52,464 nt of DNA from Parcubacteria group bacterium (GCA_041662285.1 JBAZSS010000004.1:1-52464), one strand, 5' to 3'. Positions 9,394-52,160 are shown, numbered from the stretch's first letter. Numbers and translations: made by a program. Notes: a model not told the origin generated them from the letters alone.

Positions 9394-9431
9394 ATATTTT
9401 TATTCAGTGTAATCAGGATAATCAGTGCGAA

Positions 9432-12317
9432 TCAGTGGTTCAGAATTTCTCTCAAATATTTCCCTGTCCAACTTTCTTTATGATATTTCGCCACTTCTTC
9501 CGGCGTACCAGAAACAATTAGTTTTCCCCCGCCGTCTCCGCCCTCCGGCCCAAGGTCAATTATCCAATCAGCTGTTTTTATCACATCCATATTATGCTCG
9601 ATGACCACCACGGTGTTGCCGGCGTCCACCAAACGATTCAAAACTTTCAAAAGTTTTTTGATATCATCAAAATGCAAGCCGGTAGTTGGTTCATCTAAAA
9701 TATAGAGTGTGTCGCCTGTGGCTCGACGAGAAAGCTCAGTGGCTAATTTTATCCTCTGCGCTTCTCCGCCAGAAAGTGTGGTGGCACTTTGCCCCAGCTG
9801 AATATACCCCAAGCCCACATCTTCCAAAACTGCTAGCTTATCATGAATTTCAGGAAAATTTTGAAAAAATTCTCGTGCATCCGTGATTGTCAAATCCAAC
9901 ACTTCCGCAATATTTTTCTCCTTATATTTCACTTTCAAAGTTTCACTATTATATCTTTTTCCATTACAAATATCGCACGGCAGATAGACATCCGGCATAA
10001 ATTGCATTTCGATTTTAAGTTGTCCGTCCCCTTGGCAATTGTCGCATCTTCCACCCTTAACATTAAACGAAAATCTCCCAGGAGAATATCCTTTGCTCTT
10101 AGCATCTCGCGTCTCGGCAAAAAGTTCGCGAATAGGTGTGAAAAGGCCGGTGTAGGTGGCCGGATTAGACCTCGGCGTTCTTCCAATTGGACTTTGATCA
10201 ATCATAATAATCTTGTTGATATAGTGCGCGCCAACAATTTCACTGTGCTTGCCAGGGCGATCCAATGTTCGCATAATGTCACGCGCCAAAGATTTATACA
10301 GCACATCTTCGACCAGGGTTGATTTTCCAGAGCCAGAAACTCCCGTCACGCAAGTCAAAACTTTCAAAGGAAATTCTACTGTGACGTTTTTGAGATTATG
10401 CTCACGCGCTCCGCGCACAATAATAGATTTTTTGTTTTTCATACTCCGCCGAGAAGTTGGGATTTCAATGGATAATTCTTTTCGAAGATACTTAGCCGTA
10501 AGTGATTTTTTATTCTTCAAAACTTCCTGCGGTGTTCCAGAAGCGATAATTTCTCCGCCGTGACGCCCCGCTCCTGGACCAATATCCACCAAGTAATCGG
10601 CTGCTAACATTGTTTCTTCGTCATGTTCAACCACAATCAAAGTATTGCCAACATCGCGCAGTCGCAAAAGTGTTTCCAAAAGTTTAGTGTTATCTCTAGC
10701 ATGAAGCCCGACTGATGGTTCATCTAGAATATAGAGTACGCCAACTAATTGCGAACCAATTTGCGAAGCCAAACGAATTCTCTGCGCTTCTCCACCCGCC
10801 AAAGTTGCCGCGCTTCGTCCCAGTGTCAGATATCCCAGTCCTACATTTTCCAAAAAACTCAAACGATTTTTAATTTCGGTGAGAATTCTGCCTGCAATCA
10901 ATTCTTCTTTTTGACTAAATTTCAATTCCTTGAAAAATTTCAACGCTTCAAAAATACTCACCGAAGAAATTTCTGAAATATTTTTGTTATGCACTGTCAC
11001 CAAAAGAACTTCTTTTTTATATCTTACACCAAGACACTCCGAGCAAGGATTTTGCGACATATATTTTTCCGTGTCTGCACGCACCGCATCTGATTGCGTT
11101 TTCTTATATTTATCTTGCAAATAGCCAACCGCTCCGCGCCAATTCATATTATATTTCCAAACCGCCCCTGTTTTTGAGCGTAGTGTCACTGGGATCTGCT
11201 CGGCATTTTCTTCTGAAATCATATCTTTCGCATCTTTGTCTCCAAAGAGCAAGATATTAAAATCTTCTTCCGACAAATCTCGCAAGCGCGTATTTTCTGA
11301 GATATGAAAATGATTTGTCACAGCGCGAAGGATTGTTCCTTGCCAATTATTTTTCTTATAACTCCACGGCATAATTGCCCCTTCAGCAATAGTCTTGTTT
11401 TTATCCGGTGCCACAAGTTGTGGATCGATTTCTTTTTTTGTCCCTAATCCTTCACAAGCTGGGCAAGCCCCATAGGGGCTATTGAAAGAAAACAATCGCG
11501 GTTCCAGTTCCGGAAATTCAATTTCATGAATCGGACAAGCCAAATTTTGATTGAAAACCATTTCATTAACCTTTGACTTTTGACCTTTGACTTTTGACCT
11601 TATTTTAACTAGTCCTTCTGACAATTTCAATGCTTTTTCTACTCCTTCAAAAATCCGCGAAATATTTTTGTCCGAAATTTCAACTTCATCCACCAAAATA
11701 TCAATGCTATGCTTTTTATATTTTTCCAGTTTCATCTGCTCTTTTATCTTGGCATTAAGTTCAATTTTTTTTCCATTGACATAGGCAAAAGAATATCCAC
11801 GTCGAAACATCTCTGAGAGCATAGTGCCGTATTCCCCTTTTCTTTGCCTGACAACTGGCGAAAGAATTTCAATTTGGCATTCTCCGCACATATCAATTAC
11901 CCTATCCACAATTTCATCTACCGAAAGCCTAGTGATTTCTCGATTACACTCCGGACAATGAGGAATTCCAATTTTAGCATAAAGCAACCGCAGATAATCC
12001 TGAATTTCCGTCACTGTGCCCACAGTGGAGCGTGGATTATGCGAAGCCGCTTTTTGATCAATCGAAATGGCCGGTGAAAGGCCTTCAATATAATCGACAT
12101 CCGGCTTGTCCATTTGACCCAAAAACTGCCGAGCATAAGAAGACAAACTTTCCAAATAGCGCCTTTGACCTTCCGCAAAAATTGTGTCAAAAGCCAGCGT
12201 GCTCTTGCCAGAACCGCTAATGCCCGTGAAAACTATGAATTTATTTCTCGGAAGCTTAAGATCAATATTTTTTAAATTATGTTCTCTTGCTCCTTTAATA
12301 ATAATCTCGTCTTGCAT
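9432..12317 (-). CDS. uvrA: excinuclease ABC subunit A
   Basis: 961-aa [71 protein letters not shown]. Two ABC signatures ([24 protein letters not shown]) and zinc modules. Confidence 0.95.
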   Translation of the reverse strand: MQDEIIIKGAREHNLKNIDLKLPRNKFIVFTGISGSGKSTLAFDTIFAEGQRRYLESLSSYARQFLGQMDKPDVDYIEGLSPAISIDQKAASHNPRSTVGTVTEIQDYLRLLYAKIGIPHCPECNREITRLSVDEIVDRVIDMCGECQIEILSPVVRQRKGEYGTMLSEMFRRGYSFAYVNGKKIELNAKIKEQMKLEKYKKHSIDILVDEVEISDKNISRIFEGVEKALKLSEGLVKIRSKVKGQKSKVNEMVFNQNLACPIHEIEFPELEPRLFSFNSPYGACPACEGLGTKKEIDPQLVAPDKNKTIAEGAIMPWSYKKNNWQGTILRAVTNHFHISENTRLRDLSEEDFNILLFGDKDAKDMISEENAEQIPVTLRSKTGAVWKYNMNWRGAVGYLQDKYKKTQSDAVRADTEKYMSQNPCSECLGVRYKKEVLLVTVHNKNISEISSVSIFEALKFFKELKFSQKEELIAGRILTEIKNRLSFLENVGLGYLTLGRSAATLAGGEAQRIRLASQIGSQLVGVLYILDEPSVGLHARDNTKLLETLLRLRDVGNTLIVVEHDEETMLAADYLVDIGPGAGRHGGEIIASGTPQEVLKNKKSLTAKYLRKELSIEIPTSRRSMKNKKSIIVRGAREHNLKNVTVEFPLKVLTCVTGVSGSGKSTLVEDVLYKSLARDIMRTLDRPGKHSEIVGAHYINKIIMIDQSPIGRTPRSNPATYTGLFTPIRELFAETRDAKSKGYSPGRFSFNVKGGRCDNCQGDGQLKIEMQFMPDVYLPCDICNGKRYNSETLKVKYKEKNIAEVLDLTITDAREFFQNFPEIHDKLAVLEDVGLGYIQLGQSATTLSGGEAQRIKLATELSRRATGDTLYILDEPTTGLHFDDIKKLLKVLNRLVDAGNTVVVIEHNMDVIKTADWIIDLGPEGGDGGGKLIVSGTPEEVAKYHKESWTGKYLREILNH
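11570..11601. repeat. 14-nt tandem repeat (2.3 copies) inside uvrA, in frame
   Basis: CCTTTGACTTTTGACCTTTGACTTTTGACCTT on the + strand, encoding SKVKGQKSKV. Confidence 0.8.
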
Positions 12318-12337
12318 ATTTTTTATAATTTTATCTT

Positions 12338-12373
12338 ATTCGTACATTCGTACAGATTCGTAATTCGTAAGGG
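12338..12373. repeat. F1 (ATTCGTA-word) repeat, single arm
   Basis: ATTCGTACATTCGTACAGATTCGTAATTCGTAAGGG between lexA and uvrA. No complementary arm nearby. Confidence 0.7.
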
Positions 12374-13147: not shown

Positions 13148-13242
13148 ATGCTAATCAACTAATAAAAGCTAATCCGCTAATTGCTAATAAATTAATATTA
13201 TTCGCAATTCGCATCATTCGCATATATTTGTAGATTCGCATC
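13148..13242. repeat. F3 (GCTAAT / ATTCGCA-word) hairpin repeat in the lexA leader
   Basis: GATGCTAATCAACTAATAAAAGCTAATCCGCTAATTGCTAAT ... ATTCGCAATTCGCATCATTCGCATATATTTGTAGATTCGCATC. Confidence 0.7.
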
Positions 13243-17197: not shown

Positions 17198-17382
17198 AAC
17201 TCTATCTTCCCTCAATTTCAAAATTTTGTCTAATTTATGATTATCCGCTATAATTAAACTGTTATGAAAAAGACTAAAGGGGAAAAACGGGAAAAGAAGA
17301 AAAAGCCGAAAATGCGAGTTTCCGGTAAAAGTGTGTTTAAAATAAAGGAAATTAAAGACAGAGGTTAAAAAATTCGTAGATT

Positions 17383-17402
17383 CCTGCCTACCGGCAGGCA
17401 GG
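17383..17402. repeat. GC-rich 20-mer palindrome CCTGCCTACCGGCAGGCAGG
   Basis: Exact reverse complement of 41293..41312. Lies in the uvrB / DUF360 divergent intergenic region, followed by ATTCGCA words. Confidence 0.8.
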
Positions 17403-17464
17403 CGCATGCATTCGCATATTCGCATCGCGACATTGACTAATAATTTAACTTTTGCTATCATAAT

Positions 17465-19796: not shown

Positions 19797-19908
19797 CCTT
19801 ACGAATTACGAATTCTTACGAATGTACTAATGTGAGTTAAAAATAATTTTTATATTTTATTAAATTATTCGTATTTCGTACATTCGTATTGATTCGTAAT
19901 TCGTAAGG
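19797..19908. repeat. F1 long hairpin repeat (CCTTACGAATTACGAAT ... ATTCGTAATTCGTAAGG)
   Basis: About 112 nt and about 85 percent identical to 50228..50340. Arms pair over about 28 bp. The right end overlaps the SD (AAGGAG) of the PGI gene. Confidence 0.85.
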
Positions 19909-36060: not shown

Positions 36061-36097
36061 TCGTGAAAATTGGTGTTATATTAGTGTAAATTAGTGA

Positions 36098-36958: not shown

Positions 36959-36965
36959 ATAACTT

Positions 36966-37032
36966 CACAAAATTACACAGAAATTTTCAGAATGACACAG
37001 AATTTTCTGTGTTGTTCTGTATTTATTCTGCG
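36966..37032. repeat. F2 (ACAGAA-word) hairpin repeat, tpiA-fba spacer
   Basis: CACAAAATTACACAGAAATTTTCAGAATGACACAGAA-TT-TTCTGTGTTGTTCTGTATTTATTCTGCG. Confidence 0.85.
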
Positions 37033-41247: not shown

Positions 41248-41271
41248 ATTTCAAAAAACTTCTTTTATTAT

Positions 41272-41446: not shown

Positions 41447-41457
41447 GAAAAAATAAA

Positions 41458-42216: not shown

Positions 42217-42222
42217 AGAGTT

Positions 42223-42307
42223 CTTTACTAATTACTAATCAAATACTAATATACTAATTTATAAAAAATTATTAGTATATTCGTACAAAATTCGTAATTC
42301 GTAAAAA
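42223..42307. repeat. F1 hairpin repeat (ACTAAT/ATTCGTA variant), adk-map spacer
   Basis: CTTTACTAATTACTAATCAAATACTAATATACTAAT ... ATTAGTATATTCGTACAAAATTCGTAATTCGTAAAAA. Confidence 0.75.
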
Positions 42308-42326
42308 TACAATCTTACTTTAAATC

Positions 42327-42968
42327 TTAGAGCTCTTTAAGAATGCTTTCAAACACTTTTTCAATTTCCTTATCCCCATCAATTTCGATAAACTTGCCTT
42401 GTTTTTTATAATATTCACTCATCGGCATTGTTTCCTTTTCAAAGATTTTTAATCTTTTCATCACGCCTTCCTTGGTATCATCAATCCGTTGAATTATTTT
42501 TCCCTCACATATATTACATTTTTCGTCTTCATTTTGAATATCTTTGCCCAGAATAAAAACTTTTTTGCATTTTTCACAAATTCTTCTTTTGGAAATTCTC
42601 TTAAGTGATTCTTCTTCAGAAAGCTTGATTAGAATTGCTTTATCAATCTTTCTTCCAGATTCCTTAATTACTTCTTCAAAATAATTAAGTTGTTCAATAT
42701 TTCTTGGTACCCCATCAAAAACAACTCCGCGTTCGCGTGGAAGTCCCATAATCTTTAAATGAATCACTTCGCGCAAAATTCTATCACTAACTAATTCTTT
42801 TTTAATATTAATAATTTCATGAATTTGCTTTCCTAATGGTGTATCAAGCTTCGCCACTTCACGCAAAAACTTTCCCATATCAATATGTTCTAGATCAAAT
42901 TTTTGTGCTAACTTGGACGCTTGCGTTCCCTTGCCAGATCCTTGCGGACCCAAAATTACTAAATTCAT
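42327..42968 (-). CDS. adk: adenylate kinase with a Cys4 zinc lid
   Basis: 213-aa ORF. GPQGSGKGTQ P-loop and lid CEKC...CNIC. Confidence 0.95.
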   Translation of the reverse strand: MNLVILGPQGSGKGTQASKLAQKFDLEHIDMGKFLREVAKLDTPLGKQIHEIINIKKELVSDRILREVIHLKIMGLPRERGVVFDGVPRNIEQLNYFEEVIKESGRKIDKAILIKLSEEESLKRISKRRICEKCKKVFILGKDIQNEDEKCNICEGKIIQRIDDTKEGVMKRLKIFEKETMPMSEYYKKQGKFIEIDGDKEIEKVFESILKEL

Positions 42969-43024
42969 AGTAATGCTTTAATATTCGTGTAAATTCGTTT
43001 TTTATTAGTTGCTATTCGCGAGTC

Positions 43025-44296
43025 TTAGAAACCTTCATAATCCCTCATCACTAATTGTCCTTCAATTTGTTGGATAAGCTCGATGACCACTGAAACCACA
43101 ATTAAAAGTCCGGTACCACCGATTGAGATAGAACCGATTTTAGTAAAACCTTGAACGATGAAAGGAAGAACTGCGATAAGACCAAGAAATGTTGCACCAG
43201 TGAGCGTCACGCGATTCATAATTCTAAAAAGATATTCCGAAGTGTTTTTACCCGGACGAATTCCGGGGATGTACCCCCCTTGTTTTTGCAAATTTTCTGC
43301 AATCTTGTTTGGATCAAAAACTACAGCTGTATAAAAATAGGTAAAGGCCACCACCAAAAGGAAATATAGTGAACCATAGAAAAATTGATTTTGAAAAAAA
43401 CTTCCCACTGCTCGTGCTACGCTAGCCACCGTACCATTAGATGAACTAGCCAAAAAATTAGCAATCATCCCTGGGAAAAGCATAATAGACATTGCAAAGA
43501 TAATTGGAATCACACCTGCTTGATTGATGCGCAGTGGCAAGTGAGTATTAGTTCCACCAAACATCTTGTTTCCCCGAATTCTCTTCGCATAAGCAATTGG
43601 AATATTTCTTTGTCCTTCTGTCATAAAAACTACCGCACCGACTGCGCCAATTACAACGACTAGTAGAAAAACATAGGCGAAAAATTGAGTTGAATCCCAA
43701 GTGGATACAATGCGTGAAATTGCTGAAGGTAAACTGGAAACTATTCCGGCAAAAATCAAAAGTGATACTCCGTTGCCAATCTTTTTTTCAGTGATCAATT
43801 CCCCTAGCCACATCAAAAAAATTGTTCCGGCCGTAGCCACAATCACAATAGAAAACAATCCATACGCTCCACTTGGCGCCATAATCTGCTGAGAACGAAA
43901 AAGAGAAATCATACCAATTGTTTGCAAAGCTGCCAGTGGCACCGCAATCCATCTGGTCCACTGATTGAATTTTTCTCTCCCAGCTTCGCCTTCTTCTTTG
44001 TAGATTTGTTCCAGTCTTGGAATAATCATAGTCATAAGTTGCATGATAATTGAAGAAGTAATGTATGGTCCGACTCCAAGCATCACAATAGAAATGCTCG
44101 ACAGTCCTCCGCCGGAGAAAAGATTAAGTAGTCCAAAAAATTGATTACCTTCAAAAAACATCTTGAGACGCTCTTGATCAATTCCGGGAATAGGGATGTT
44201 AGCAGCTAGGCGAAAAATCACCAAAAGCGCCAAGATAAAAAATATCTTGTTTCTGAGTTCTTTGACTTTGAAGATTTGAATTATTTTTTGAAACAT
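43025..44296 (-). CDS. secY: preprotein translocase subunit SecY
   Basis: Ten-TM ORF in the canonical position after L15. Start taken at MFQKIIQIF (ATG at 44296); the 12 extra codons of the ORF read into an intergenic repeat. Confidence 0.95.
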   Translation of the reverse strand: MFQKIIQIFKVKELRNKIFFILALLVIFRLAANIPIPGIDQERLKMFFEGNQFFGLLNLFSGGGLSSISIVMLGVGPYITSSIIMQLMTMIIPRLEQIYKEEGEAGREKFNQWTRWIAVPLAALQTIGMISLFRSQQIMAPSGAYGLFSIVIVATAGTIFLMWLGELITEKKIGNGVSLLIFAGIVSSLPSAISRIVSTWDSTQFFAYVFLLVVVIGAVGAVVFMTEGQRNIPIAYAKRIRGNKMFGGTNTHLPLRINQAGVIPIIFAMSIMLFPGMIANFLASSSNGTVASVARAVGSFFQNQFFYGSLYFLLVVAFTYFYTAVVFDPNKIAENLQKQGGYIPGIRPGKNTSEYLFRIMNRVTLTGATFLGLIAVLPFIVQGFTKIGSISIGGTGLLIVVSVVIELIQQIEGQLVMRDYEGF

Positions 44297-44351
44297 AAGT
44301 TCAACGAACAATGACCAGTGAACAATGAACAATAAAAACTATACTTTTTTT

Positions 44352-44819
44352 TTATTGCTCCTTGTCTTTTGTTCCTTGATCATTGATTACTTTTCCACCG
44401 ACTTTTTCAATTGCCTCTTTGGCTGATTTTGATAGAAGAATGTCATTACTAAAAGAAAGTTTTTTAGAGAGCTTACTTGCACCAAGAATTTTGATTTTTT
44501 CCCGCTTCACAACTTTGCCGAGTAATTTTGTTTTGACTAAAGATTCAACATTCACAGTTTCGCCATCCTTAAACATCTTTTCAATTTGCTCCAAAGACAA
44601 CACTGTTTTTTTAGCTTCTCTTGATTTAAATCCTTTTTTCTTTTTCATGTGATCGATAAGTGTTGAACGTCCACCTTCAAATAAAGGATCGACATGCGCT
44701 CCACTTCGCGCTTTTTGCCCCTTATTACCCTTGCCACAATAGGTGCCTTTTTTTCCACCTCGTCCAATAGTCTTTCTTTTCTTCTTTTTGCTATTAAGTT
44801 TTAGAGTATTAACTTGCAT
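44352..44819 (-). CDS. rplO: 50S ribosomal protein L15 with a repeat-derived C-terminal tail
   Basis: 155-aa ORF. GRGGKKGTYCGKGNKGQKARSG. The last 11 codons (INDQGTKDKEQ) lie in the GAACAAT-word repeat. Confidence 0.92.
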   Translation of the reverse strand: MQVNTLKLNSKKKKRKTIGRGGKKGTYCGKGNKGQKARSGAHVDPLFEGGRSTLIDHMKKKKGFKSREAKKTVLSLEQIEKMFKDGETVNVESLVKTKLLGKVVKREKIKILGASKLSKKLSFSNDILLSKSAKEAIEKVGGKVINDQGTKDKEQ

Positions 44820-44826
44820 ATTAGTT

Positions 44827-44904
44827 CACAAAATTATACAGAATTTTACAGAATGACACGGATTTTTTTCTGTGTTGCTCTGTCGTTTTCTGTATCTTTC
44901 TGTT
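44827..44904. repeat. F2 hairpin repeat, S5-L15 spacer (where L30 would normally be)
   Basis: CACAAAATTATACAGAATTTTACAGAATGACACGGA-T7-CTGTGTTGCTCTGTCGTTTTCTGTATCTTTCTGTT. Confidence 0.85.
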
Positions 44905-44908
44905 TATT

Positions 44909-45400
44909 TTATTTGGCTCTTTCGCCTCTTTTTTTCGAATCTTGAAATGTTCTCAAAGCTTCGATAGTGGCTCTAGCTACATTTAATTTGTTGGCCGTTC
45001 CCAATGATTTCGAAACGATGTCTTTGATTCCAGCCAAATCAACAACAGCGCGCACCGCTCCACCCGCCACAATTCCTCGTCCTTCTGGAGCAGGTTTGAG
45101 CATAATTTTAGCACTGCCTGATTTTATAAACATATCATGCGGGATGGTGTTTTTTTTGACATCAACATTGATCATATTTTTCTTACCGTCATCAAAAGCT
45201 TTCTTGATTGCATCTGTCACATCTGCTCCTTTGCCAACGCCCACACCTACTTTTCCTTTTCGATTACCAATAACTAAGGTAGCGCGAAAACGAAATCTTC
45301 TTCCGCCCTTAACCACACGCGTCACCCTAGCCAAATCTAAAAGCTTCTGATCGTATTCAGGTTTTTCTTTTTTAGTTCTTGTTCGTTTGTCTCTACCCAT
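44909..45400 (-). CDS. rpsE: 30S ribosomal protein S5
   Basis: 163-aa ORF. VTRVVKGGRRFRFRATLVIGNRKGKVGVGVGKG. Confidence 0.95.
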   Translation of the reverse strand: MGRDKRTRTKKEKPEYDQKLLDLARVTRVVKGGRRFRFRATLVIGNRKGKVGVGVGKGADVTDAIKKAFDDGKKNMINVDVKKNTIPHDMFIKSGSAKIMLKPAPEGRGIVAGGAVRAVVDLAGIKDIVSKSLGTANKLNVARATIEALRTFQDSKKRGERAK

Positions 45401-45415
45401 AAAATTTTTCGTAAA

Positions 45416-45763
45416 TTAAAATTTTAGTCCACCTTCCCTAGCTCCCTGCGCTAGCGCCTTTATTTTTCCATGATATTTATAACCACTTCTGTCGTATACA
45501 ATTTCACTAATCTTTTTCTCTAAGCATTTTTTAGCTATCAAAATTCCAACATTTTTTGCACCTTCGATATCGTTTTTAGCCTGCTTTATTTCTTTGAGAT
45601 ACGCCGAAACTATTGTAGTTGATTTCTCATCATCAATAACCTGAGCAGATATGCTCGTGAGACTTTTGAAAACTGCCAAACGCGGTCTTTTCGCGTCACC
45701 CTTAATCTTAGCTTTTATTCGCTTTTTTCGATGTAATCTTAAATTGTTTCTACTATTTTTCAT
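45416..45763 (-). CDS. rplR: 50S ribosomal protein L18
   Basis: 115-aa ORF. RLAVFKSLTSISAQVID ... YHGKIKALAQGAREGGLKF. Confidence 0.95.
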   Translation of the reverse strand: MKNSRNNLRLHRKKRIKAKIKGDAKRPRLAVFKSLTSISAQVIDDEKSTTIVSAYLKEIKQAKNDIEGAKNVGILIAKKCLEKKISEIVYDRSGYKYHGKIKALAQGAREGGLKF

Positions 45764-45765
45764 AA

Positions 45766-45849
45766 ATTCAAATTGTCGCTAATGTTTATACTAATGTATT
45801 CGAATTAATTATTCGCATTCATTCGTTTTACCATTCGCGAATATTAGCA
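45766..45849. repeat. F3 hairpin repeat, L6-L18 spacer
   Basis: ATTCAAATTGTCGCTAATGTTTATACTAATGTATTCGAAT... The first ~45 nt are nearly identical to 51241..51285. Confidence 0.8.
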
Positions 45850-45852
45850 TTT

Positions 45853-46398
45853 CTACTTTACGGCGCCGGCTTTTTTACCAACTTTTCTTCTAACTTTTTC
45901 TCCTTGATATCTAAAACCCTTTCCCTTATATGGTTCAACTTTTTTTAGGGCTCTGATATTAGCTGCGAATTGTCCTACTTTTTGCTTATCCGATCCGGAG
46001 ATTGAAAGAACATTATTATCTTCAATTTTGACTGTCAAGCCTTCCGGAATTTCCTCTTCAACTGGATGAGAAAAACCGAGAGCCATAACCAATTTTTTTC
46101 CTTGTAAGGACATACGAAACCCCACTCCCTGCAGTTCTAGTTTTTTTTCAAAACCATCTTTGGCACCAACAATCATATTGTTCACTAGTGCTCGCGTAAG
46201 ACCCCAAATAGCATTGGCTTCCTTGGTGTTTCTGATGCGAGAAAATTTCATTTCTCCGTCAGATATTTCCACTTTAATTTGTCGACTAATTTCCAAATTC
46301 AAAGTGCCTTTTGGACCTTTAACTTCCAATTTTTCACCATCGAGCTTAATCTCGATTCCTTGCGGTATAGCTATTATTTTTTTCCCTATTTTACTCAT
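45853..46398 (-). CDS. rplF: 50S ribosomal protein L6
   Basis: 181-aa ORF. SKIGKKIIAIPQGIEIKLDGEKLEVKGPKG ... YKGKGFRY. Confidence 0.95.
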   Translation of the reverse strand: MSKIGKKIIAIPQGIEIKLDGEKLEVKGPKGTLNLEISRQIKVEISDGEMKFSRIRNTKEANAIWGLTRALVNNMIVGAKDGFEKKLELQGVGFRMSLQGKKLVMALGFSHPVEEEIPEGLTVKIEDNNVLSISGSDKQKVGQFAANIRALKKVEPYKGKGFRYQGEKVRRKVGKKAGAVK

Positions 46399-46420
46399 TT
46401 TTTTACTGCTTTATTAAATT

Positions 46421-46462
46421 ATTCGTAATTCGTACATTCGTATTAATTCGTAATTTGTAAGG
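46421..46462. repeat. F1 repeat, single arm, S8-L6 spacer
   Basis: ATTCGTAATTCGTACATTCGTATTAATTCGTAATTTGTAAGG abuts the S8 stop codon. Confidence 0.7.
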
Positions 46463-46463
46463 A

Positions 46464-46856
46464 CTACCAAACTTCACAAATATATTCTCCGCCTAATCCA
46501 AGCTTTCTTGACTCTGCTCCCGTCATCACACCTTTGGAGGTAGAGATAATAGCTGTGCCGTAATTATTCTTAACATTCTTAATATCTTTGTTCTTGATAT
46601 AGATTCTTTGTCCTGATTTAGAAATTTTCTTGATTCCCTTAATAGCAGGAATTTTTCTGGTTGGAGTAATTTGATAATATTTCAAAATTATCTTTATCAA
46701 ACCTTCTGCATCCATAGAAGTTTTTTCTACAAAGCCTTCTTTTTCTAAAATCCCAGCTAAGGCAATTCTAAGTTTAGATGGTTTTATAGCCACTTCTTTA
46801 TGCCCAGCCATCTGAGCATTTCTTATTTTAGTTAACATTTCAGAAATTTTGTCCAT
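46464..46856 (-). CDS. rpsH: 30S ribosomal protein S8
   Basis: 130-aa ORF. ISEMLTKIRNAQMAGHKEV ... GGEYICEVW. Confidence 0.95.
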   Translation of the reverse strand: MDKISEMLTKIRNAQMAGHKEVAIKPSKLRIALAGILEKEGFVEKTSMDAEGLIKIILKYYQITPTRKIPAIKGIKKISKSGQRIYIKNKDIKNVKNNYGTAIISTSKGVMTGAESRKLGLGGEYICEVW

Positions 46857-46871
46857 AATTTATAAAATTAA

Positions 46872-47057
46872 TTACCAACTTGCTTTTTTAACTCCAGGGA
46901 TTTGTCCAGTAATAGCCAACTCTCTAAAACATATTCGGCATATATCAAATTGTCTCATATACCCATGCTTTCTTCCGCACTTCCAACAACGTCTGACTAT
47001 TCTCGTCGAAAATTTAGGTTTTTTGCGGGCTCTTGCTTCGGTTGATTTCTTCGCCAT
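46872..47057 (-). CDS. rpsN: 30S ribosomal protein S14, zinc-binding type Z
   Basis: 61-aa [23 protein letters not shown] ... PGVKKASW. Confidence 0.95.
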
Positions 47058-47068
47058 AATTTAATCTT

Positions 47069-47146
47069 ACATAATTACACAGAATTCTTACAGAACGACA
47101 CGGAATTTTTTCTGTATTGTTCTGTAATCTTCTGTGTTTTTCTGTT
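47069..47146. repeat. F2 hairpin repeat, L5-S14 spacer
   Basis: ACATAATTACACAGAATTCTTACAGAACGACACGGAA-TTTT-TTCTGTATTGTTCTGTAATCTTCTGTGTTTTTCTGTT. Confidence 0.85.
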
Positions 47147-47690
47147 ATTGTTTAATCTCCATTGGGAATCCCAATAATTTAACCAGTGCCAAGCCTTTCG
47201 CTCTATCCTGTGCATCCGTGACTACGGTCACTTCTAGGCTGAAAGTATTCTTAACTTGTTCCGGCAAAATTTCTGGAAAAATCAATTGTTCTTTTATCCC
47301 AATATTCAAATTACCACTCGTGTCAACAGCTGAAGTTTTCAAGCCATGGAAATCTTTCACGCGAGGAAGAGCAGCCTTAACTAATCTTTCGATAAAACTC
47401 CACATTCTTTTTCCTCGCAAAGTCACTTTCATCCCAATTTCTAATCCTTCTCTTGTCTTGAATCCAGCAATTGATTTTTTTGCTTTAGTTGGTAGGGGTT
47501 TTTGTCCAGTAATAACGGTGAGGGTTTTCGCGATATCTTCAACTTGAGCAGAATCTTTCAAAAATTTTCCTATTCCGATATTGACCACGACTTTTTTTAT
47601 TTTAGGCACTTCAAAATCATTGGAAAGATTAAGTTCTTTTTTCATTTTTTCCACTATTTCTTTGCTATATTTTTCTCTAATACTAATCAT
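47145..47690 (-). CDS. rplE: 50S ribosomal protein L5
   Basis: 181-aa ORF. VPKIKKVVVNIGIG ... AGFKTREGLEIG. Confidence 0.95.
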   Translation of the reverse strand: MISIREKYSKEIVEKMKKELNLSNDFEVPKIKKVVVNIGIGKFLKDSAQVEDIAKTLTVITGQKPLPTKAKKSIAGFKTREGLEIGMKVTLRGKRMWSFIERLVKAALPRVKDFHGLKTSAVDTSGNLNIGIKEQLIFPEILPEQVKNTFSLEVTVVTDAQDRAKGLALVKLLGFPMEIKQ

Positions 47691-47698
47691 GTTCTTTT

Positions 47699-47806
47699 CT
47701 TTACTAATTACTAATCTTATACAAATATACTAATTTACGAATGAGATTCCTAATTTGATTTTATTCGTACATTCGTATATTTGTACTGATTCGTAATTCG
47801 TAATGG
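47699..47806. repeat. F1 hairpin repeat, L24-L5 spacer
   Basis: Left arm of ACTAAT words, right arm ATTCGTACATTCGTATATTTGTACTGATTCGTAATTCGTAATGG. Fills the whole spacer. Confidence 0.8.
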
Positions 47807-48112
47807 TTATATTTCTCCTTGGCATTTTTTACAAACTCTTTGCTTTTTTCCAGCTACTATCTTATATCCTATTCTGGTAGGTTTAGCACATTTTGGGCAA
47901 ATCAGCATAACATTGGAAATCTGAACTCTTCTTGGCACTTCAATTCTTTGTCCTTTTTCTCCTTGCTTTCTTGGTTTAGAATGTTTTTTCATTATATTCA
48001 AACCCTCTACGACAACCTTGCCGTCTTGAGGAACCGCCTGCAAAACCTTCCCGGTTTTTCCAGAGTCTTTACCTGCAAGCATTTTTACTAAATCATTTTT
48101 CTTTATCTTCAT
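47807..48112 (-). CDS. rplX: 50S ribosomal protein L24 with a C-terminal CxxC...CxxC zinc ribbon
   Basis: 101-aa ORF. KOW motif KKNDLVKMLAGKDSGKTGKV, then CPKC...CKKC. Confidence 0.93.
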   Translation of the reverse strand: MKIKKNDLVKMLAGKDSGKTGKVLQAVPQDGKVVVEGLNIMKKHSKPRKQGEKGQRIEVPRRVQISNVMLICPKCAKPTRIGYKIVAGKKQRVCKKCQGEI

Positions 48113-48120
48113 AATAATAT

Positions 48121-48200
48121 CACAGAATTACACAGAATTCTTACAGAACGACACGGAATTTTTTCTGTGTTATTCTGTTATATTCTGTATCTTTTTGTGT
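48121..48200. repeat. F2 hairpin repeat, L14-L24 spacer
   Basis: CACAGAATTACACAGAATTCTTACAGAACGACACGGAA-TTTT-TTCTGTGTTATTCTGTTATATTCTGTATCTTTTTGTG. About 90 percent identical to 47069..47146. Confidence 0.85.
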
Positions 48201-48201
48201 T

Positions 48202-48567
48202 TTATAATACTTCCGGTGCGAGAGAAATTATCTTACTAAATCCCTTGTCTCTGATTTCCCTAGCAATCGGTCCAAAAATTCTAGTTCCTTTTGGTTCCTT
48301 GTTATCCAAAATCACTGCGGCATTTTCATCAAATCTGATGTATGATCCATCTTTTCTTCTAAATTCTTTTCTTTGTCTAACAATCACGGCTCGTACTTTA
48401 TCCCCTTTTTTCACTATTCCGCGAGGCTCAGCAGTTTTTACTGAAGCTACGATAATGTCACCAATACTGGCAAAACGTCTTCTTGTTCCGCCTAAAACCT
48501 TGAAGCATTGAATCATTTTTGCTCCGCTATTATCAGCTACCTTTAATTTTGTTTGAGCTTGTATCAT
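48202..48567 (-). CDS. rplN: 50S ribosomal protein L14
   Basis: 121-aa [20 protein letters not shown]. Confidence 0.96.
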
Positions 48568-48573
48568 ATATTT

Positions 48574-48822
48574 CTAAACTACTTTATATTTCTTATCCTT
48601 ACTCATTGGTCGGCAAGCCACTATCTCTACCATATCGCCAAGCTTGCATTTATTTTCTTCATCATGCGCCTTATATCTTTTGGTTGATTTATATTTTTTC
48701 TGATATTTTTTATGAGTTTTGAATATATCCACAGCAACAATAGCGGTCTTATTACCCTTATCACTCACAACTCGCCCTTTCTTTTTCGCTAATATTTTAT
48801 TGTTGTTTGAATTATTTTCCAT
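48574..48822 (-). CDS. rpsQ: 30S ribosomal protein S17
   Basis: 82-aa ORF. GRVVSDKGNKTAIVAV...YKAHDEENKCKLGDMVEI. Confidence 0.93.
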   Translation of the reverse strand: MENNSNNNKILAKKKGRVVSDKGNKTAIVAVDIFKTHKKYQKKYKSTKRYKAHDEENKCKLGDMVEIVACRPMSKDKKYKVV

Positions 48823-48830
48823 TTTCTTTA

Positions 48831-49013
48831 TTATTTTTCGCTAATTAAAGTATTTATTCGAGCAATATCTTTTTTTTCTCCTCTCAGTTCTCGAGTATTT
48901 TTCACTTGCTTTACTGCAATATCAAATCTAAGCTTTCTAACTTTTTCTTGTTTTTCCAAAAGCATTTTTTTCAGCTCTTCAATATTTTTTTCTCGTAATT
49001 CTTTAATTTTCAT
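48831..49013 (-). CDS. rpmC: 50S ribosomal protein L29
   Basis: MKIKELREKNIEELKKML... Start taken at the ATG at 49013, 1 nt after the L16 stop. The ORF track start at 49031 would overlap L16. Confidence 0.88.
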   Translation of the reverse strand: MKIKELREKNIEELKKMLLEKQEKVRKLRFDIAVKQVKNTRELRGEKKDIARINTLISEK

Positions 49014-49014
49014 A

Positions 49015-49425
49015 TTATTCTTTTTCAACAAATTTAGTCTTTACATTTAATTTATAAGCTGCGAGTCGCATCGCCTCTTTTGCAATTTCTCTTTTCACGC
49101 CATCCATTTCAAATAACATCGTTCCTGGTTTTACTACTGCCACAAAATGATCAACCGCACCTTTTCCCTTACCCATCGGAGTTTCATCACCTTTTTTCGT
49201 CATTGGCTTGTCAGGAAAAATTCTGATCCAAATTTTTCCTCCGCGTTGAACATATCTAGTCATCGCACGTCTGGAAGCTTCTATCTGACGAGCTGTAACT
49301 AAACTAGCTCCCATTGATTTCAAACCAAAACTGCCAAAGCTAACTTCATTACCACGATGAGCTGTTCCGCGGATTTTCCCTCCACGCTGGATCTTTCTGT
49401 GTTTTACTTTTTTTGGCATCAACAT
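49015..49425 (-). CDS. rplP: 50S ribosomal protein L16
   Basis: 136-aa [23 protein letters not shown] ... RMGKGKG-type loop. Confidence 0.96.
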
Positions 49426-49432
49426 GAATTTT

Positions 49433-49546
49433 CTTTACGAATTACTAATCAATTACTAATATACTAATTCTATTTAAACTATTTTATTCTTTATGGATTA
49501 CTGTTCGTACATTAGTATATTCGTACGAAATTAGTAATTCGTAAAG
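49433..49546. repeat. F1 hairpin repeat, S3-L16 spacer
   Basis: CTTTACGAATTACTAAT... pairs perfectly with ...ATTAGTAATTCGTAAAG (17 bp), and further inward. Confidence 0.85.
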
Positions 49547-49547
49547 A

Positions 49548-50192
49548 CTACTCAAAAACTTCACCTTTATACAACCAAACTTTTACTCCCAATGTTCCGT
49601 ATGTCGTATAGGCCGTTGCTCTGGAAAAATCAATGTCGCATCGCATAGTATGAAGTGGTAATGTTCCTTTGGCTGACCACTCTCTACGACTCATTTCAGC
49701 ACCACCTAATCTCCCAGACATTTCAATTTTCACTCCTTTAATATTTTTATTCTTCATCACTTGTTCCAAAGCTGATTTCATAGCTTTTCGAAAAGGTAAT
49801 CTTTTTTCCAATTGATCAGCAATGTTTTGTGCCATGATTGCAGCGCTTTCTTCCATATTCTTAACTTCCTGAATATCTACTTTCAAATTCATATTCTTAT
49901 TGCCTTTGAAAAAATTCTTTTGGATATAACTTTTAATATCTTCAATGCCACTGCCGCCACGTCCGATTAGCACTCCTGGTCTGGCAGTTTTAATGATCAC
50001 TCGAATCATTTTGGCCGATCTTTCTATTTCCACTTCAGATATAAAAGCCGCTTTCCATTTTTTGGAAACTCCACCTCTAATTTCAATGTCTTGCTTGAGG
50101 TTTTTTGTATATTCTCTTTTGCTAAACCATTTAGATTTCCAGTCTTGAGTTATCCCCATGCGGAATCCAATTGGATTTACTTTATGTCCCAT
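49548..50192 (-). CDS. rpsC: 30S ribosomal protein S3
   Basis: 214-aa ORF. MGHKVNPIGFRMGITQDWKSKWF and the KH domain. Confidence 0.96.
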   Translation of the reverse strand: MGHKVNPIGFRMGITQDWKSKWFSKREYTKNLKQDIEIRGGVSKKWKAAFISEVEIERSAKMIRVIIKTARPGVLIGRGGSGIEDIKSYIQKNFFKGNKNMNLKVDIQEVKNMEESAAIMAQNIADQLEKRLPFRKAMKSALEQVMKNKNIKGVKIEMSGRLGGAEMSRREWSAKGTLPLHTMRCDIDFSRATAYTTYGTLGVKVWLYKGEVFE

Positions 50193-50227
50193 GCTAATTT
50201 AATTTAATATGCTTTAGTTAGCTATTT

Positions 50228-50340
50228 CCTTACGAATTACGAATTTTTACGAATGTACTAATGTGAACTGAATAATCTTTTGCTGTTTTATTTAATTATT
50301 CGTAATTCGTATATTCGTACCGATTCGTAATTCGTAAGGG
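50228..50340. repeat. F1 long hairpin repeat, L22-S3 spacer
   Basis: Near-duplicate of 19797..19908 in the same + strand orientation, although the flanking genes run the other way. Confidence 0.85.
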
Positions 50341-50344
50341 TTAC

Positions 50345-50884
50345 TTACATTGACTTTCTTTGAAATATTTTTTTTGCCCAACCCTTATTAGGAGTTTCTT
50401 TTTTGGCACGTTCTTCACCACCCTTTTTATCTAAATCCTTGTTGGATTTTTCTTGTGTTTCTTTTTGCTCTTTCTCTTCTTTCTTTCTATCTTTTTCTCT
50501 TTTTTTCATTTCCGCTTCCATTTCTTCCTTAGTTTTTCGGTTTTTTCCTTCCACTCTTTCTTCTAGTATAATTTCTATTTTCGATGTTCTTTTCAGAATT
50601 TCACCGGCTCGTCCGAAAGCTTTCGGCATCCAGCGTTTCATTGTTGGTCCTGCTCCGATTCTAGCTTCATATACATACAAATTATTCTTATCTAAACCAA
50701 AATTATTTTCCGCATTAGCAATTGCACTTAAAAGCAATTTTTTCATGTGTGGGCTGGTTCTTTTAACATGCGCTTCAAGCTGATCGAGTGCTTCCAAGAC
50801 ATCCAGACCCTTTATCAAATCAGCCACTAATTTTGACTTTCTTGGAGCGATTCTCAAATTGTTTAGTTTTGCATTAACTTTCAT
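50345..50884 (-). CDS. rplV: 50S ribosomal protein L22 with a ~65-aa Lys/Glu-rich C-terminal extension
   Basis: 179-aa ORF. NLRIAPRKSKLVADLIKG...GPTMKRWMPKAFGRA, then KEEMEAEMKKREKDRKKEEKEQKE... Confidence 0.93.
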   Translation of the reverse strand: MKVNAKLNNLRIAPRKSKLVADLIKGLDVLEALDQLEAHVKRTSPHMKKLLLSAIANAENNFGLDKNNLYVYEARIGAGPTMKRWMPKAFGRAGEILKRTSKIEIILEERVEGKNRKTKEEMEAEMKKREKDRKKEEKEQKETQEKSNKDLDKKGGEERAKKETPNKGWAKKIFQRKSM

Positions 50885-50896
50885 AATTATTGAATA

Positions 50897-51238
50897 TTAT
50901 TTCTTGGTATCCGTTGAGGCCTTAGCGGCTTTAGCAGCGTCTAGTTCTTTTTGTTTAGCGGCTGTTTCTAATTCTTTTTGCATTTTTCCTCCATGACGGA
51001 CAAATTTCTTGGTTGGAGAAAATTCTCCTAGCTTGTGTCCAACCATTTCTTCAGAAACCAAAACTGGAATATGATCTTTGCCGTTATGCACACCAAAAGT
51101 AAAACCCACCATTTCAGGAGAAATTACGCAGGCGCGAGACCAAGTTTTAATTGGAGTTCGATCCCCCGGTTTTTTATCTTTAATTTTCTTGATGAGCCTT
51201 TCATCAATGTAAAGGCCTTTCTTTAAACTTCTTGTCAT
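50897..51238 (-). CDS. rpsS: 30S ribosomal protein S19 with a short Ala/Lys-rich C-terminal extension
   Basis: 113-aa [15 protein letters not shown]...[29 protein letters not shown]. Confidence 0.95.
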
Positions 51239-51240
51239 GA

Positions 51241-51312
51241 ATTCAAATTGTCGCTAATGTTTATACAAATGCATTCGAATAAATTTGTTTTAACATTCGC
51301 GATATATTAGCG
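51241..51312. repeat. F3 hairpin repeat, L2-S19 spacer (right arm includes the L2 stop codon)
   Basis: ATTCAAATTGTCGCTAATGTTTATACAAATGCATTCGAAT...AACATTCGCGATATATTAGCG. Confidence 0.8.
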
Positions 51313-52137
51313 TTTCGATCTTCTTTTGATTATGAATTTATTGCTATATTTTTTCTTCTTTCTAGTTTTCTTGCCGAGAGCTATCTTGCCCCATGGAGTT
51401 TTTGGATGTTTAAGTCCAATTCCTTGGCGACCCTCACCTCCACCATGTGGATGATCAACTGGATTCATAGCACTACCCCGCACTCCTGGTCTCACTCCCA
51501 TATGTCTTTTTCTTCCAGCTTTTCCAATTGTCACAGAATTATGTTCAAAATTACTTACTTGACCGATAGTAGCATAGCATTCACTACTTATCAAGCGAAT
51601 TTCTCCAGAGGACATTTTCACTTGAGCAGTTTTTTGATCTATCGCAGTAAGGGTTGCTCCTGAACCGGCACTTCTAGCTATTTGTCCACCGTGATTTGGA
51701 AAAAGTTCCAAATTGGAAACAACTGTTCCGATAGGAATGTTTTTTACCTTAGCACGATTACCTAATTTAATTGGAGCATCTTCCTGGGAAATTATTTTTT
51801 GATCAATAGCTAAGCCTTCCGGTGCTAGCACATATCTTTTCTCTCCATCAGCATAAATCACAAGGGCGATAAAAGCGCTTCTGACTGGATCTTTTTCAAT
51901 TGAAGCCACTCGTCCCCAAATACCAAATTTGTCTTGCATAAAATCAACTTTGCGATATCTCTGCTTTGCTCCACCACCTTGATGACGCACAGAAATTTTT
52001 CCTCCCGATCTCCCAGCTTTTTTGGTCAGTTTCGCCAAAAGAGACTTTTCCGGTTTTCGGTCGGTTATCATAGAAGATTTCACAATAGACATGTTTCTTC
52101 TTCCAGCAGTATTTCGTTTATAAATTTTAATCGCCAT
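51307..52137 (-). CDS. rplB: 50S ribosomal protein L2
   Basis: 276-aa ORF. RGSAMNPVDHPHGGGEG motif. Confidence 0.97.
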   Translation of the reverse strand: MAIKIYKRNTAGRRNMSIVKSSMITDRKPEKSLLAKLTKKAGRSGGKISVRHQGGGAKQRYRKVDFMQDKFGIWGRVASIEKDPVRSAFIALVIYADGEKRYVLAPEGLAIDQKIISQEDAPIKLGNRAKVKNIPIGTVVSNLELFPNHGGQIARSAGSGATLTAIDQKTAQVKMSSGEIRLISSECYATIGQVSNFEHNSVTIGKAGRKRHMGVRPGVRGSAMNPVDHPHGGGEGRQGIGLKHPKTPWGKIALGKKTRKKKKYSNKFIIKRRSKR

Positions 52138-52160
52138 TTTGGTTGATTTATTTCTCTAAA

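Follow-up and report, generated by a model that had tools for sequence, protein, structure and literature searches.

Word-array repeats filling ribosomal-protein operon spacers in a Candidatus Moranbacteria genome are probably gene-less relatives of an element carrying a predicted GxxExxY nuclease gene

The DNA analysed here (hereafter the window) is a stretch of 52,464 nt from a Parcubacteria group bacterium (GCA_041662285.1 JBAZSS010000004.1:1-52464), and its SecY homologues place the organism in Candidatus Moranbacteria, within the Candidate Phyla Radiation (CPR, or Patescibacteria). The minus strand holds the S10/spc/secY/adk/map cluster at 42217-52400, and the spacers of this cluster are filled with inverted repeats built from short words; these spacer elements, and a small gene named GxxExxY that lies between related arms in other genomes, are the subject of this work. 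Ten junctions have spacers of 65-152 nt, namely L2/S19 (68 nt), L22/S3 (152), S3/L16 (122), L14/L24 (89), L24/L5 (116), L5/S14 (87), S8/L6 (65), L6/L18 (89), S5/L15 (89) and adk/map (110). L15/secY and secY/adk measure 55 and 56 nt, and the remaining neighbours are separated by 6-23 nt or overlap (L16/L29). An initial annotation, made from the sequence alone, had described nine junctions with filled spacers of 65-145 nt, of which the filling stands and the count and sizes are corrected to those above. Repeat DNA makes up about 12% of the ribosomal gene cluster, and 13 full and 6 partial copies are present within the window. CPR genomes are about 1 Mb in size and very compact, and for a streamlined genome so much repeat DNA in its most conserved operon was unexpected.

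We name the main word families F1 (TACGAAT words, with subfamilies F1a and F1b), F2 (ACAGAAT words) and F3 (GCGAAT/ATTAGC words). Their assignment to junctions in the initial annotation was right at every one, and the copies that it listed elsewhere, at 12338, 13148, 19797 and 36966, are real; three families were too few, however, since the window has at least five word families and its close relatives have about ten. An assembly artefact, which had been raised as a concern, is ruled out because an independent Logan contig (from SRR18595301) is identical to the window across 48149..47086, with both of its ends within F2 repeats, and because the same families recur in the separate assemblies of relatives. 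The elements of the window are as follows, with z scores for folding relative to shuffled sequences given for the two strands.

51239..51315, minus strand: F3 element at L2/S19, GCGAAT/ATTAGC words (z -1.9/-3.0)
50193..50344, minus strand: F1a hairpin at L22/S3, arms of TACGAAT words at 50228-50262 and 50305-50339, with an additional 35-nt tail (z -8.2/-8.0)
49426..49547, minus strand: F1b hairpin at S3/L16, TACGAAT and TACTAAT words mixed, arms partly compensated (z -8.2/-7.2)
48113..48201, minus strand: F2 hairpin at L14/L24, ACAGAAT words with a period of ~10 (z -5.9/-7.7)
47691..47806, minus strand: F1b hairpin at L24/L5, identical in the independent Logan contig (z -6.3/-8.6)
47058..47147, minus strand: F2 hairpin at L5/S14, first word beginning at the L5 stop codon (z -6.7/-8.1)
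46399..46463, minus strand: F1 half element at S8/L6, 5' arm and start of the loop without the 3' arm (no fold)
45764..45852, minus strand: F3 element at L6/L18 (z -1.9/-2.5)
44820..44908, minus strand: F2 hairpin at S5/L15 (z -6.8/-6.3)
44297..44392, minus strand: GAACAAT-family hairpin at L15/secY, 3' arm a run of ATTGTTC words (-26.3 kcal/mol)
42969..43024, minus strand: degenerate xCGAAT word run at secY/adk, of the solo 5'-arm type, no hairpin (z +0.6)
42217..42326, minus strand: F1b hairpin at adk/map (z -3.0 on the mRNA strand, -4.9 on the plus strand)
36959..37032, minus strand: F2 hairpin at TIM/FBA, outside the ribosomal operon (z -4.8/-5.2)
36061..36097, minus strand: solo arm at FBA/nuoE, CAC(T/C/G)AAT words with a period of 10 (period from Tandem Repeats Finder, TRF)
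19797..19908, minus strand: F1a hairpin between SBP_5 and GPI, host genes on the plus strand (z -9/-10)
17372..17440, minus strand: GCGAAT/TACGAAT word remnant upstream of uvrB, interrupted by a GC-rich palindrome
13148..13242, minus strand: F3-like element, TGCGAAT x4 / ATTAGC x4-5 (z -2.8/-2.9)
12326..12373, minus strand: F1 half element at lexA-like/uvrA, 5' arm only (no fold)
9394..9444, minus strand: solo left arm of a TCTGAACC + CTGATT family at uvrA/uvrC, giving the last uvrA codons (LNH) and stop

Syntenic loci from three relatives were obtained through SecY homologues, one (L002) with ~92% and two (L003 and L005) with ~80% nucleotide identity to the window in genes. The elements are located strictly between the stop and start codons of co-directional genes, and the upstream open reading frame (ORF) runs to a stop that often lies within the element, as for L2, L15 and uvrA here and for adk in L003 and L005. 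At L2/S19 the 5' end of the F3 element supplies the last L2 codons and the stop, and its 3' tail, ACAATTTGAATTC, adjoins the S19 ATG; the site is empty in L002 and L003 and holds a copy identical at 67 of 68 nt in L005, and set against the empty sites the element does provide the L2 stop, as had been proposed. The GAACAAT-word repeat previously described as separate at L15/secY is indeed a family, but it forms the 3' arm of a full hairpin (44297-44392) whose 5' arm is part of the L15 ORF and codes for the ~11 C-terminal residues (INDQGTKDKEQ), and the L15 C-termini of all three relatives are different and shorter. The words of what had been taken for a loose run at 9399..9431 are also present, and in fact belong to the left arm of a further family, which begins with TCTGAACCACTGA. 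On the 3' side, a short purine-rich tail of 4-14 nt, specific to each family, stands directly before the ATG (ACAATTTGAATTY for F3, AAAGAAAA plus 3-5 nt for F1b, AAATGAAAWWW for the TACGAAA type), and with the exception of L22/S3 the foot of each hairpin in the window is 0-16 nt from the stop and 3-19 nt from the start. Both gene calling and assembly are affected by these elements, which alter the C-termini of L2, L15, uvrA and adk and within which contigs break.

An arm consists of words of 7-8 nt, arrayed in a single direction at a spacing of 7-11 nt, and the opposite arm holds the same array in inverse form. We counted 36 occurrences of TACGAAT, 34 of them within spacers, where 6.25 +/- 2.6 were expected, and the ACAGAA dimer was found 9 times, with an expectation of 0.01; TRF recovered period-7 arrays in the F1 arms and the GAACAAT family, and period-10 arrays in the F2 arms. 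Elements of the window are 65-152 nt long and contain no ORF, and the arms measure 22-44 nt and are 74-93% complementary, an architecture kept across 22 F1 copies. In an alignment of these copies, which come from many Moranbacteria, the F1 arm reads TTACGAATTACGAAT, 3-4 nt, TACGAAT, 1 nt and TAC(G/T)AAT, with the inverse opposite, and the loops are unrelated from one subfamily to another. Compensatory changes are present at three arm positions (e.g. AU in 11 copies versus GC in 9), and thus the co-variation of arms suggested by the initial annotation is real. So is the one-sided G-to-T difference that it noted, which in the mRNA sense is a C-to-A change in the 3' arm producing G.A mismatches; in the 13148 element the same G.A mismatch is found in each word pair. 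The direction of this change fits the strand composition bias of the window, which we infer to be its explanation; the window has GC and AT skew, and the GC skew at third codon positions (GC3 skew) is -0.21 and -0.31 in the genes of the two strands.

The spacers had all been described as long hairpins, and folding of both strands upholds this for F1 and F2, with z = -4.8 to -10 relative to shuffles (except adk/map, -3.0 on the mRNA strand), but F3 folds weakly (z -1.9 to -3.0) and the half elements at S8/L6 and 12318-12380 do not fold. Folds of the mRNA strand are often weaker than those of the antisense strand. One substitution can be common to all words of an arm (TGCGAAT x4 versus ATTAGC x4-5 at 13148), and the number of words differs between orthologous copies, with an extra TACGAAA at L24/L5 and a lost word at L6/L18 in L005; arms therefore also evolve by slippage and homogenisation.

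Searches for known features of other kinds were made across the window. Rfam 15 at the gathering score gave 0 matches, a tRNA scan found none, and a promoter consensus scan showed no enrichment; intrinsic terminators had no minus-strand match inside any element, with counts below shuffle expectation. Integron attC sites were rejected, as the element ends (CCTTACGAAT...ATTCGTAAGG, CACAGAAT...ATTCTGTG and TCGCGAAT...ATTAGCGA) are not attC core sites (RYYYAAC/GTTRRRY) and no integrase is present among the window genes scanned (219-27134), and CRISPR- or TIGR-like arrays were rejected for lack of variable spacers. We would like to note that on the plus (antisense) strand the F2 centre at 48150-48171 resembles an intrinsic terminator (GACACGGAATTTTTTCTGTGTT followed by a T-rich tail), which could be one reason for F2 appearing in one orientation only.

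The elements turn over between relatives and are not conserved regulatory structures. At roughly half of the junctions of the ribosomal cluster, L002 differs from the window in spacer length or element family, and up to 17 of 21 junctions are filled in L003 and L005. Spacer lengths at six junctions were as follows.

L2/S19: window 68 nt, L002 0, L003 2, L005 68
L24/L5: window 116 nt, L002 20, L003 19 (F1 remnant)
S14/S8: window 15 nt, L002 147
adk/map: window 110 nt, L002 2
S5/L15: window 89 nt, L002 20
L5/S14: window 87 nt, L002 34, L005 9

Near-identical copies stand at different junctions and in different species. With an F1a consensus taken from the L002 S3/L16 copy, that copy and the one at S10/L3 of L002 each match at 100% over the aligned length, and the window's 19797 copy matches this L002-derived consensus at 97%; the S8/L6 and L18/S5 copies of L003 are each ~99% identical to the consensus of the TACGAAA family (F4). 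The F3 element at L6/L18 of the window is 98.9% identical to the copy at S3/L16 in L005, another junction in another species. At S3/L16, an F1b element in the window and L003 is replaced in L002 by an F1a element of the same length, which points to conversion via shared arms. Remnants also match full copies elsewhere: the arm and loop of the half element at S8/L6 correspond to the full S14/S8 copy of L002, and the secY/adk junction, which holds a degenerate run in the window, holds a full F3 copy in L005. Smaller traces are a 19-nt footprint at L24/L5 of L003 (TAATTCGTAAGGGAAAACT) and, at L18/S5 of the window, TTTACGAAAAATTTT, a collapsed TACGAAA element. The relatives carry the families of the window together with TACGAAA, TTTTCAAT, TACAAAA, CATGAAA and ATCAATGA words. 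Three traits of miniature inverted-repeat transposable elements (MITEs) are thus present, namely terminal inverted repeats, small size without an ORF, and dispersed copies up to 100% identical within a genome.

Two observations on the relatives' families may be added. In TACGAAA-family loops of L003 (3744-3839 and 11274-11382) and L047 (1924-2028), AAGGAG or GGAG is followed by an ATG that opens a mini-ORF of 8 codons (MFRIS.IS*), crossing the 3' arm and ending 15-20 nt before the next gene; this reading frame (ATG TTT CGT ATT TCG ... TAG with a Shine-Dalgarno sequence) was rejected as a general feature, being found in only 3 of 20 copies. At FBA/nuoE of L002 (~18349-18372), CATGAAA stands three times in tandem and runs into the nuoE start (ATGAAAC), as though the surroundings of the start codon had themselves been copied in steps of 7 nt.

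Beyond these relatives, an exact 22-base pattern of the F1 arm was searched for in species-representative genomes, for which we estimate ~0.1 chance matches, and at least 116 stretches were retrieved. Among the matches listed, 33 were from Moranbacteria, ~26 from other CPR, 7 from metagenome-assembled genomes labelled Bdellovibrionales, 41 from Bacteroidota and 3 from Cyanobacteria, with the taxon labels of metagenome-assembled genomes accepted as given. In CPR and Bdellovibrionales the array usually has its inverse partner and is again placed between genes, for example at S3/L16 in an Uhrbacterium, at S14/S8 in a Jorgensenbacterium and upstream of atpD, and in Bacteroidota and Cyanobacteria the word occurs mostly as a direct array. 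Viral contigs gave 0 matches to the arm, hence no phage link. In the Bacteroidota loci L018 (3400-3700) and L027 (1230-1510) an F1 arm of 4-5 words is itself repeated, with a unit of ~80-120 nt, and in L018 an AGAAGCT heptamer array follows the long F1 direct array.

Gene-carrying forms were found by searching for widely spaced F1 ends and then, by tblastn, for GxxExxY. Strict F1 ends spaced more than 250 bp apart were found in Bacteroidota and in none of the CPR loci. In the Bacteroidota units, arms of xCGAAT words flank a single small ORF, which is GxxExxY (TIGR04256, E = 4e-28; PF13366); such arms surround the gene in L114, L081, L120 and L027, and tblastn retrieved L081, L120, L080 and another L027 copy, whose word differs from that of the first. 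In CPR, the L114-like subfamily has members flanked by xCGAAT arrays as well (L203, L206 and L207), with the L203 gene standing between S7 and the gene that follows it in the str operon. A second, L080-like subfamily is very abundant in Moranbacteria and Parcubacteria. In L080 itself, which comes from a sister species of the window's organism, GxxExxY lies between arms of TCTGAACC/CTGATT words, and the left arm recurs in the window at 9394-9444.

The correspondence between protein and arms was quantified on 77-78 metagenome GxxExxY loci. The flank-to-flank inverted-repeat score exceeded the 95th percentile of shifted controls in 40 of 77 loci. A TCTGAAC end motif (TGTCTGAACC...GGTTCAGACA) was present in 42 of the 78 loci of one subfamily and 0 of 7 of the other, whereas xCGAAT arrays were present in 0 of those 78 and 5 of the 7. 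The gene lay inside the arms, with the left arm upstream and the right arm downstream, in 16 of 78 loci, compared to 0 of 160 other complete ORFs in the same loci, which see the opposite arrangement of arms. GxxExxY was co-oriented with both neighbours in 45 of 52 loci, and gene-less hairpins adjoin gene-carrying ones of the same family.

All GxxExxY hits carry PF13366, and the protein has an intact, conserved D...ExK motif. G32, E35, Y38, D74, E84 and K86 are invariant in an alignment of 10 sequences; in one of 42 sequences G30, G32, E35 and K86 are invariant and Y38, D74 and E84 are kept in at least 90%. An AF2 model (pLDDT 89.8) has as its nearest solved folds Cas4 SSO0001 (E = 4e-4), the AddAB nuclease domain, lambda exonuclease, splicing endonucleases and Hjc, all of them PD-(D/E)XK enzymes. 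These neighbours come from the fold search only, a sequence profile of GxxExxY having given no match against the PDB. In the only survey to include PF13366, the family is entered without a known function and is noted for multiple transfers between divisions.

We interpret the spacers, with a probability of roughly 0.6, as gene-less MITE-like copies and remnants of a selfish inverted-repeat element that carries the GxxExxY nuclease gene. The selfish spacer elements that the initial annotation had listed among several possibilities are supported by the differing occupancy, the near-identical copies at different junctions, the remnants and the gene-carrying versions. Several points nevertheless weigh against this interpretation. 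GxxExxY is absent from the window, and none was found between F2, F3 or TACGAAA-type arms, so that for these three families the link to the nuclease rests on analogy. Some GxxExxY genes stand between two complete hairpins and not within one, and the gene could be cargo, or a homing gene invading hairpins that already existed. GxxExxY, with its predicted PD-(D/E)XK nuclease fold, does not belong to the known transposases. When filled and empty junctions of the four genomes were compared, the whole spacer proved to be replaced, and neither a target-site duplication nor a clean boundary between the two states was recognisable. In F3 and the 13148 element, which fold weakly and have a periodic G.A mismatch, the hairpin is not obviously what is being kept. 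Finally, orthologous elements are conserved far above the level of synonymous sites in the flanking genes, as detailed below, which a host-level function fits at least as well as selfishness does.

If the elements are indeed spread by GxxExxY, the nuclease may recognise its cognate word arrays and promote their copying, either by break and repair, in a manner similar to homing, or by cutting an extruded cruciform, and gene-less copies would be moved in trans or be formed by deletion in place. Empty spacers measure just 0-20 nt, and any insertion that survives would therefore have its foot within a few nucleotides of both stop and start. Elements within operons are presumably co-transcribed, and their arms would pair in the RNA, so that even with an insertion of 70-150 nt the stop and the start would meet at the foot of a single helix. 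On terminating, a ribosome might then melt the foot of the stem and expose the next start, with coupling surviving. Insertions are probably tolerated in essential, stoichiometric operons because the hairpin keeps stop and start together in this way. The elements change by the arrival of new copies, conversion between copies via shared arms and slippage of words within arms, and deletion across a hairpin gives rise to the half elements and the 15-20 nt footprints.

More tentatively, and at slightly worse than even odds in our judgement, the hairpins could be the abundant gene-less form of an unrecognised class of mobile element, whose sole gene would be the ~125-aa GxxExxY nuclease, whose ends would be lineage-specific word arrays, which would target, or survive only at, co-directional stop/start junctions, and which would be spread over CPR, Bacteroidota, Bdellovibrionales-like bacteria and possibly Cyanobacteria. 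Were this the case, a role would be found for PF13366, a large family listed as of unknown function, and unexplained intergenic heptamer arrays of the TAACTGA and STRR type would have a common origin. Should the nuclease link hold, this would be a new kind of selfish element and a candidate for the maker or spreader of heptamer repeats in Bacteroidota, Cyanobacteria and Beggiatoaceae. The operons also offer a natural experiment on how much structured RNA fits between translationally coupled cistrons. In the searchable literature on hairpins of CPR and Moranbacteria, MITEs of Patescibacteria, GxxExxY and PF13366, we found no description of these elements and no link of GxxExxY to repeats.

The alternative that survives best, though we consider it unlikely, is that these are RNA elements selected by the host, which would be processing sites (for RNase III or otherwise), stabilise upstream cistrons from the 3' side or act as clamps that enforce translational coupling, with mobility secondary. 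Elements at the same junction are better conserved than the flanking third codon positions: the F3 element at L2/S19 is 98.5% identical to that of L005 (flanking positions 60-63%), the F1b element at S3/L16 91.7% identical to that of L003 (66-67%) and the F1a element at L22/S3 95.4% identical to that of L002 (79%). This identity reflects sequence constraint, homogenisation from a conserved pool, or recent lateral spread; the L2/S19 element is present in the window and L005 and absent from their respective sister genomes, and the flanking codons track the species tree. Host selection would also accommodate the fixed short tail of each family adjoining the ATG, an imperfect duplex potential of at least 20 bp, which is long enough for RNase III, and an almost uniform orientation to the host transcript (~37 clear copies versus 2, although most of the 37 stand in one conserved operon and are not independent). 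RNase III cuts such stems in T7 early mRNA, Correia elements and 23S rRNA intervening sequences, and processing is a possible consequence of the hairpins here. Nevertheless, RNase III sites cannot explain why elements are present at particular junctions, because occupancy is not conserved; neither occupancy nor family is kept even at 92% identity. Half elements and footprints persist, the same families stand in unrelated operons (12338, 19797 and 36966), mRNA-strand folds are often the weaker ones and there is no Rfam family match. The 19797 copy, moreover, has the chromosomal orientation of the operon copies and is thereby inverted relative to its own host transcript. By GC3 skew the minus strand is the leading strand throughout the window, so this copy fits a replication-strand rule, but the second exception, in L043, is inverted relative to both replication skew and transcription. 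The replication- or transcription-linked structure offered earlier as a possible role finds no specific support, the orientation being strongly biased yet absolute for neither.

We regard as improbable a reading in which each 7-8 nt word is one of a series of binding sites for a regulator, either translational or DNA-binding, and the hairpin is incidental, with S1, Csp, CsrA and ribbon-helix-helix-type heptad binders as candidates. The regular spacing of 7-11 nt, the persistence of solo arms, the retention of words and not of pairing in F3 and at 13148, the presence of the same word across phyla, and the ending of arrays beside start codons, as in MacGregor 2015 (PMC4679880), would all be accounted for. 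With at least 10 words in one lineage, however, as many binders would be needed, and CPR arrays are nearly always inverse pairs, with compensatory changes between the arms. Occupancy is again not conserved, and the only protein that co-varies with word family is the GxxExxY nuclease, which favours the selfish element.

A very improbable possibility is movement as single-stranded DNA hairpins by a Y1 transposase (RAYT/TnpA), as for REP/REPIN or IS200/IS605. Beyond the hairpin form itself, the elements begin with TTAC, the target of IS608, and the two F1a copies of the window point the same way on the chromosome despite the opposite strands of their host genes. The arms, however, are arrays of words in place of REP units, the L043 copy runs counter to replication skew as well as to transcription, and no transposase was found among the scanned window genes (lgt, two uvrA, AbiEii, uvrC, lexA, uvrB, holin-like, SBP_5, GPI, ManC, RNase J, aaRS and PGM), nor a Y1 transposase beside any element in the ~200 loci examined, visually or with a GxxExxY tblastn, the remainder of the genome being unsearched. 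A RAYT/Y1 driver, which the initial annotation had suggested looking for, thus gains no support, and the associated gene is instead the PD-(D/E)XK protein GxxExxY. An equally poor prospect is local origin without mobility, with heptamers arising by replication slippage in each spacer and the inverse arm by template switching: the varying word number in L005 (L24/L5 and L6/L18), the CATGAAA tandem across the L002 nuoE start, the substitution shared by all words of the 13148 arm and the long direct arrays of Bacteroidota suit it, but slippage accounts for variation within elements and not for their dispersal, as copies at different junctions share loops, tails and arms at up to 100% identity and the same 35-40 nt arm architecture is found in different phyla.

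In their behaviour the elements are closest to Correia/NEMIS, ERIC and REP, and in their words and position at start codons to TAACTGA/STRR arrays. Correia/NEMIS (Neisseria) and ERIC (enterobacteria, Yersinia) are imperfect palindromes of ~100-150 bp with terminal inverted repeats and many intergenic copies, which are co-transcribed, form long hairpins and vary in presence between strains. The elements described here are likewise intergenic imperfect palindromes near genes, vary in presence and are presumed to be co-transcribed. They differ from both in having no sequence similarity, in their word-array arms, in the coexistence of many families and in an associated gene of PD-(D/E)XK type and not an IS630-type or other known transposase; unlike for Correia/NEMIS, no TA duplication was seen, and the elements span from stop to start inside essential operons. 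REP/REPIN are short intergenic palindromes forming doublet hairpins, with a single-copy RAYT gene flanked by them and effects on the stability of operon mRNA. Shared with these are intergenic palindromic repeats that form hairpins and a gene flanked by repeats, but the flanked gene is GxxExxY, no RAYT was found among the scanned window proteins, and the arms are longer and word-built (7-11 nt spacing), as opposed to 20-40 nt REP doublets.

MIRU (mycobacterial interspersed repetitive units) are direct tandem repeats of 40-100 bp in operon spacers that preserve stop and start and contain small in-frame ORFs. The present elements resemble them as intercistronic repeats that preserve the flanking stop and start, and differ in being hairpins and not direct repeats with in-frame ORFs; we know of no nuclease associated with MIRU. 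Intervening sequences of 23S rRNA, in which a small ORF lies between inverted repeats, and free-standing homing endonuclease genes are sporadic and leave degenerate gene-less remnants. Here too a small selfish gene with stem-forming flanks occupies a highly expressed conserved unit, although many gene junctions serve as sites in place of one target, and no sign of RNA excision or homing was obtained. STRR are cyanobacterial arrays of short tandem 7-nt repeats. Head-to-tail 7-nt words by start codons, overlap with the ends of upstream ORFs and placement in ribosomal operons are common to TAACTGA/STRR arrays and our elements, and the direct-only TACGAAT arrays of Bacteroidota and Cyanobacteria are like TAACTGA arrays; in contrast, the arrays here and in most CPR copies are inverse-paired hairpins, with loops and tails copied along and several families coexisting. 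MacGregor 2015 (PMC4679880) described TAACTGA heptamer arrays, patchily distributed in Beggiatoaceae, Cyanobacteria and Bacteroidetes and with no known mechanism, which end a few nucleotides from start codons, sometimes overlap the end of the upstream ORF and occur inside ribosomal-protein operons; no nuclease gene was linked to the arrays in that paper.

Other repeats and features were observed in and around the window. Within the cluster, L22 (50345-50884) has a Lys/Glu-rich C-terminal extension of ~70 residues, kept in all three relatives, and the L30 gene is absent between S5 and L15. A 20-nt GC-rich palindrome, CCTGCCTGCCGGTAGGCAGG, is present at 17383-17402, at 41293-41312 and in the map/ruvX spacer of L002, nested in word arrays, and looks like a second, tiny repeat that inserts into them. 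GC-rich palindromic repeats of the CCCTCTC...GAGAGGG type fill a long spacer at 41236-41457, and the nuoE/nuoF spacer of L005 and the map/ruvX spacer of L002 hold the GC-rich palindromes TGTCATTCCCGCGAAYGCGGGAATCTAG...CTAGATTCCCG...GGGAATGACA; both sets are distinct from the word hairpins. A further, separate family of hairpins, with arms of 40 nt (TACCTGCCAGATTTGC...GCAAATCAGGCAGGTA), is found at 13315-13420, with a related copy in the S10/L3 spacer of L002 (~440-570).

The region 3336-17461 is a repair/SOS cluster of uvrA paralogues (3336-6125 and 9432-12317), uvrC, a lexA-like gene and uvrB, with the gene of an AbiEii toxin (6563-7339) in their midst. The 5' end of the listed uvrB ORF is overextended by ~85 aa, and 17200-17464 is therefore probably a divergent promoter region. 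Two copies of a ~165-nt element, ~85% identical and in the same orientation, are located at 6130-6300 and 21890-22060, with long-range inverted ends (TAAGACTTACG...CGTAAGTCAT); one is just upstream of the RNase J gene and the other upstream of uvrA, neither has an Rfam match, and the element could be a structured RNA or another repeat family. Finally, period-7 repeats of 3.7-5 copies are also present within coding regions, at 3202-3236, 11569-11601, 29211-29236 and 29305-29336 (TTGATCA, TTTGACT, TACTTCC and AAAGTAG).

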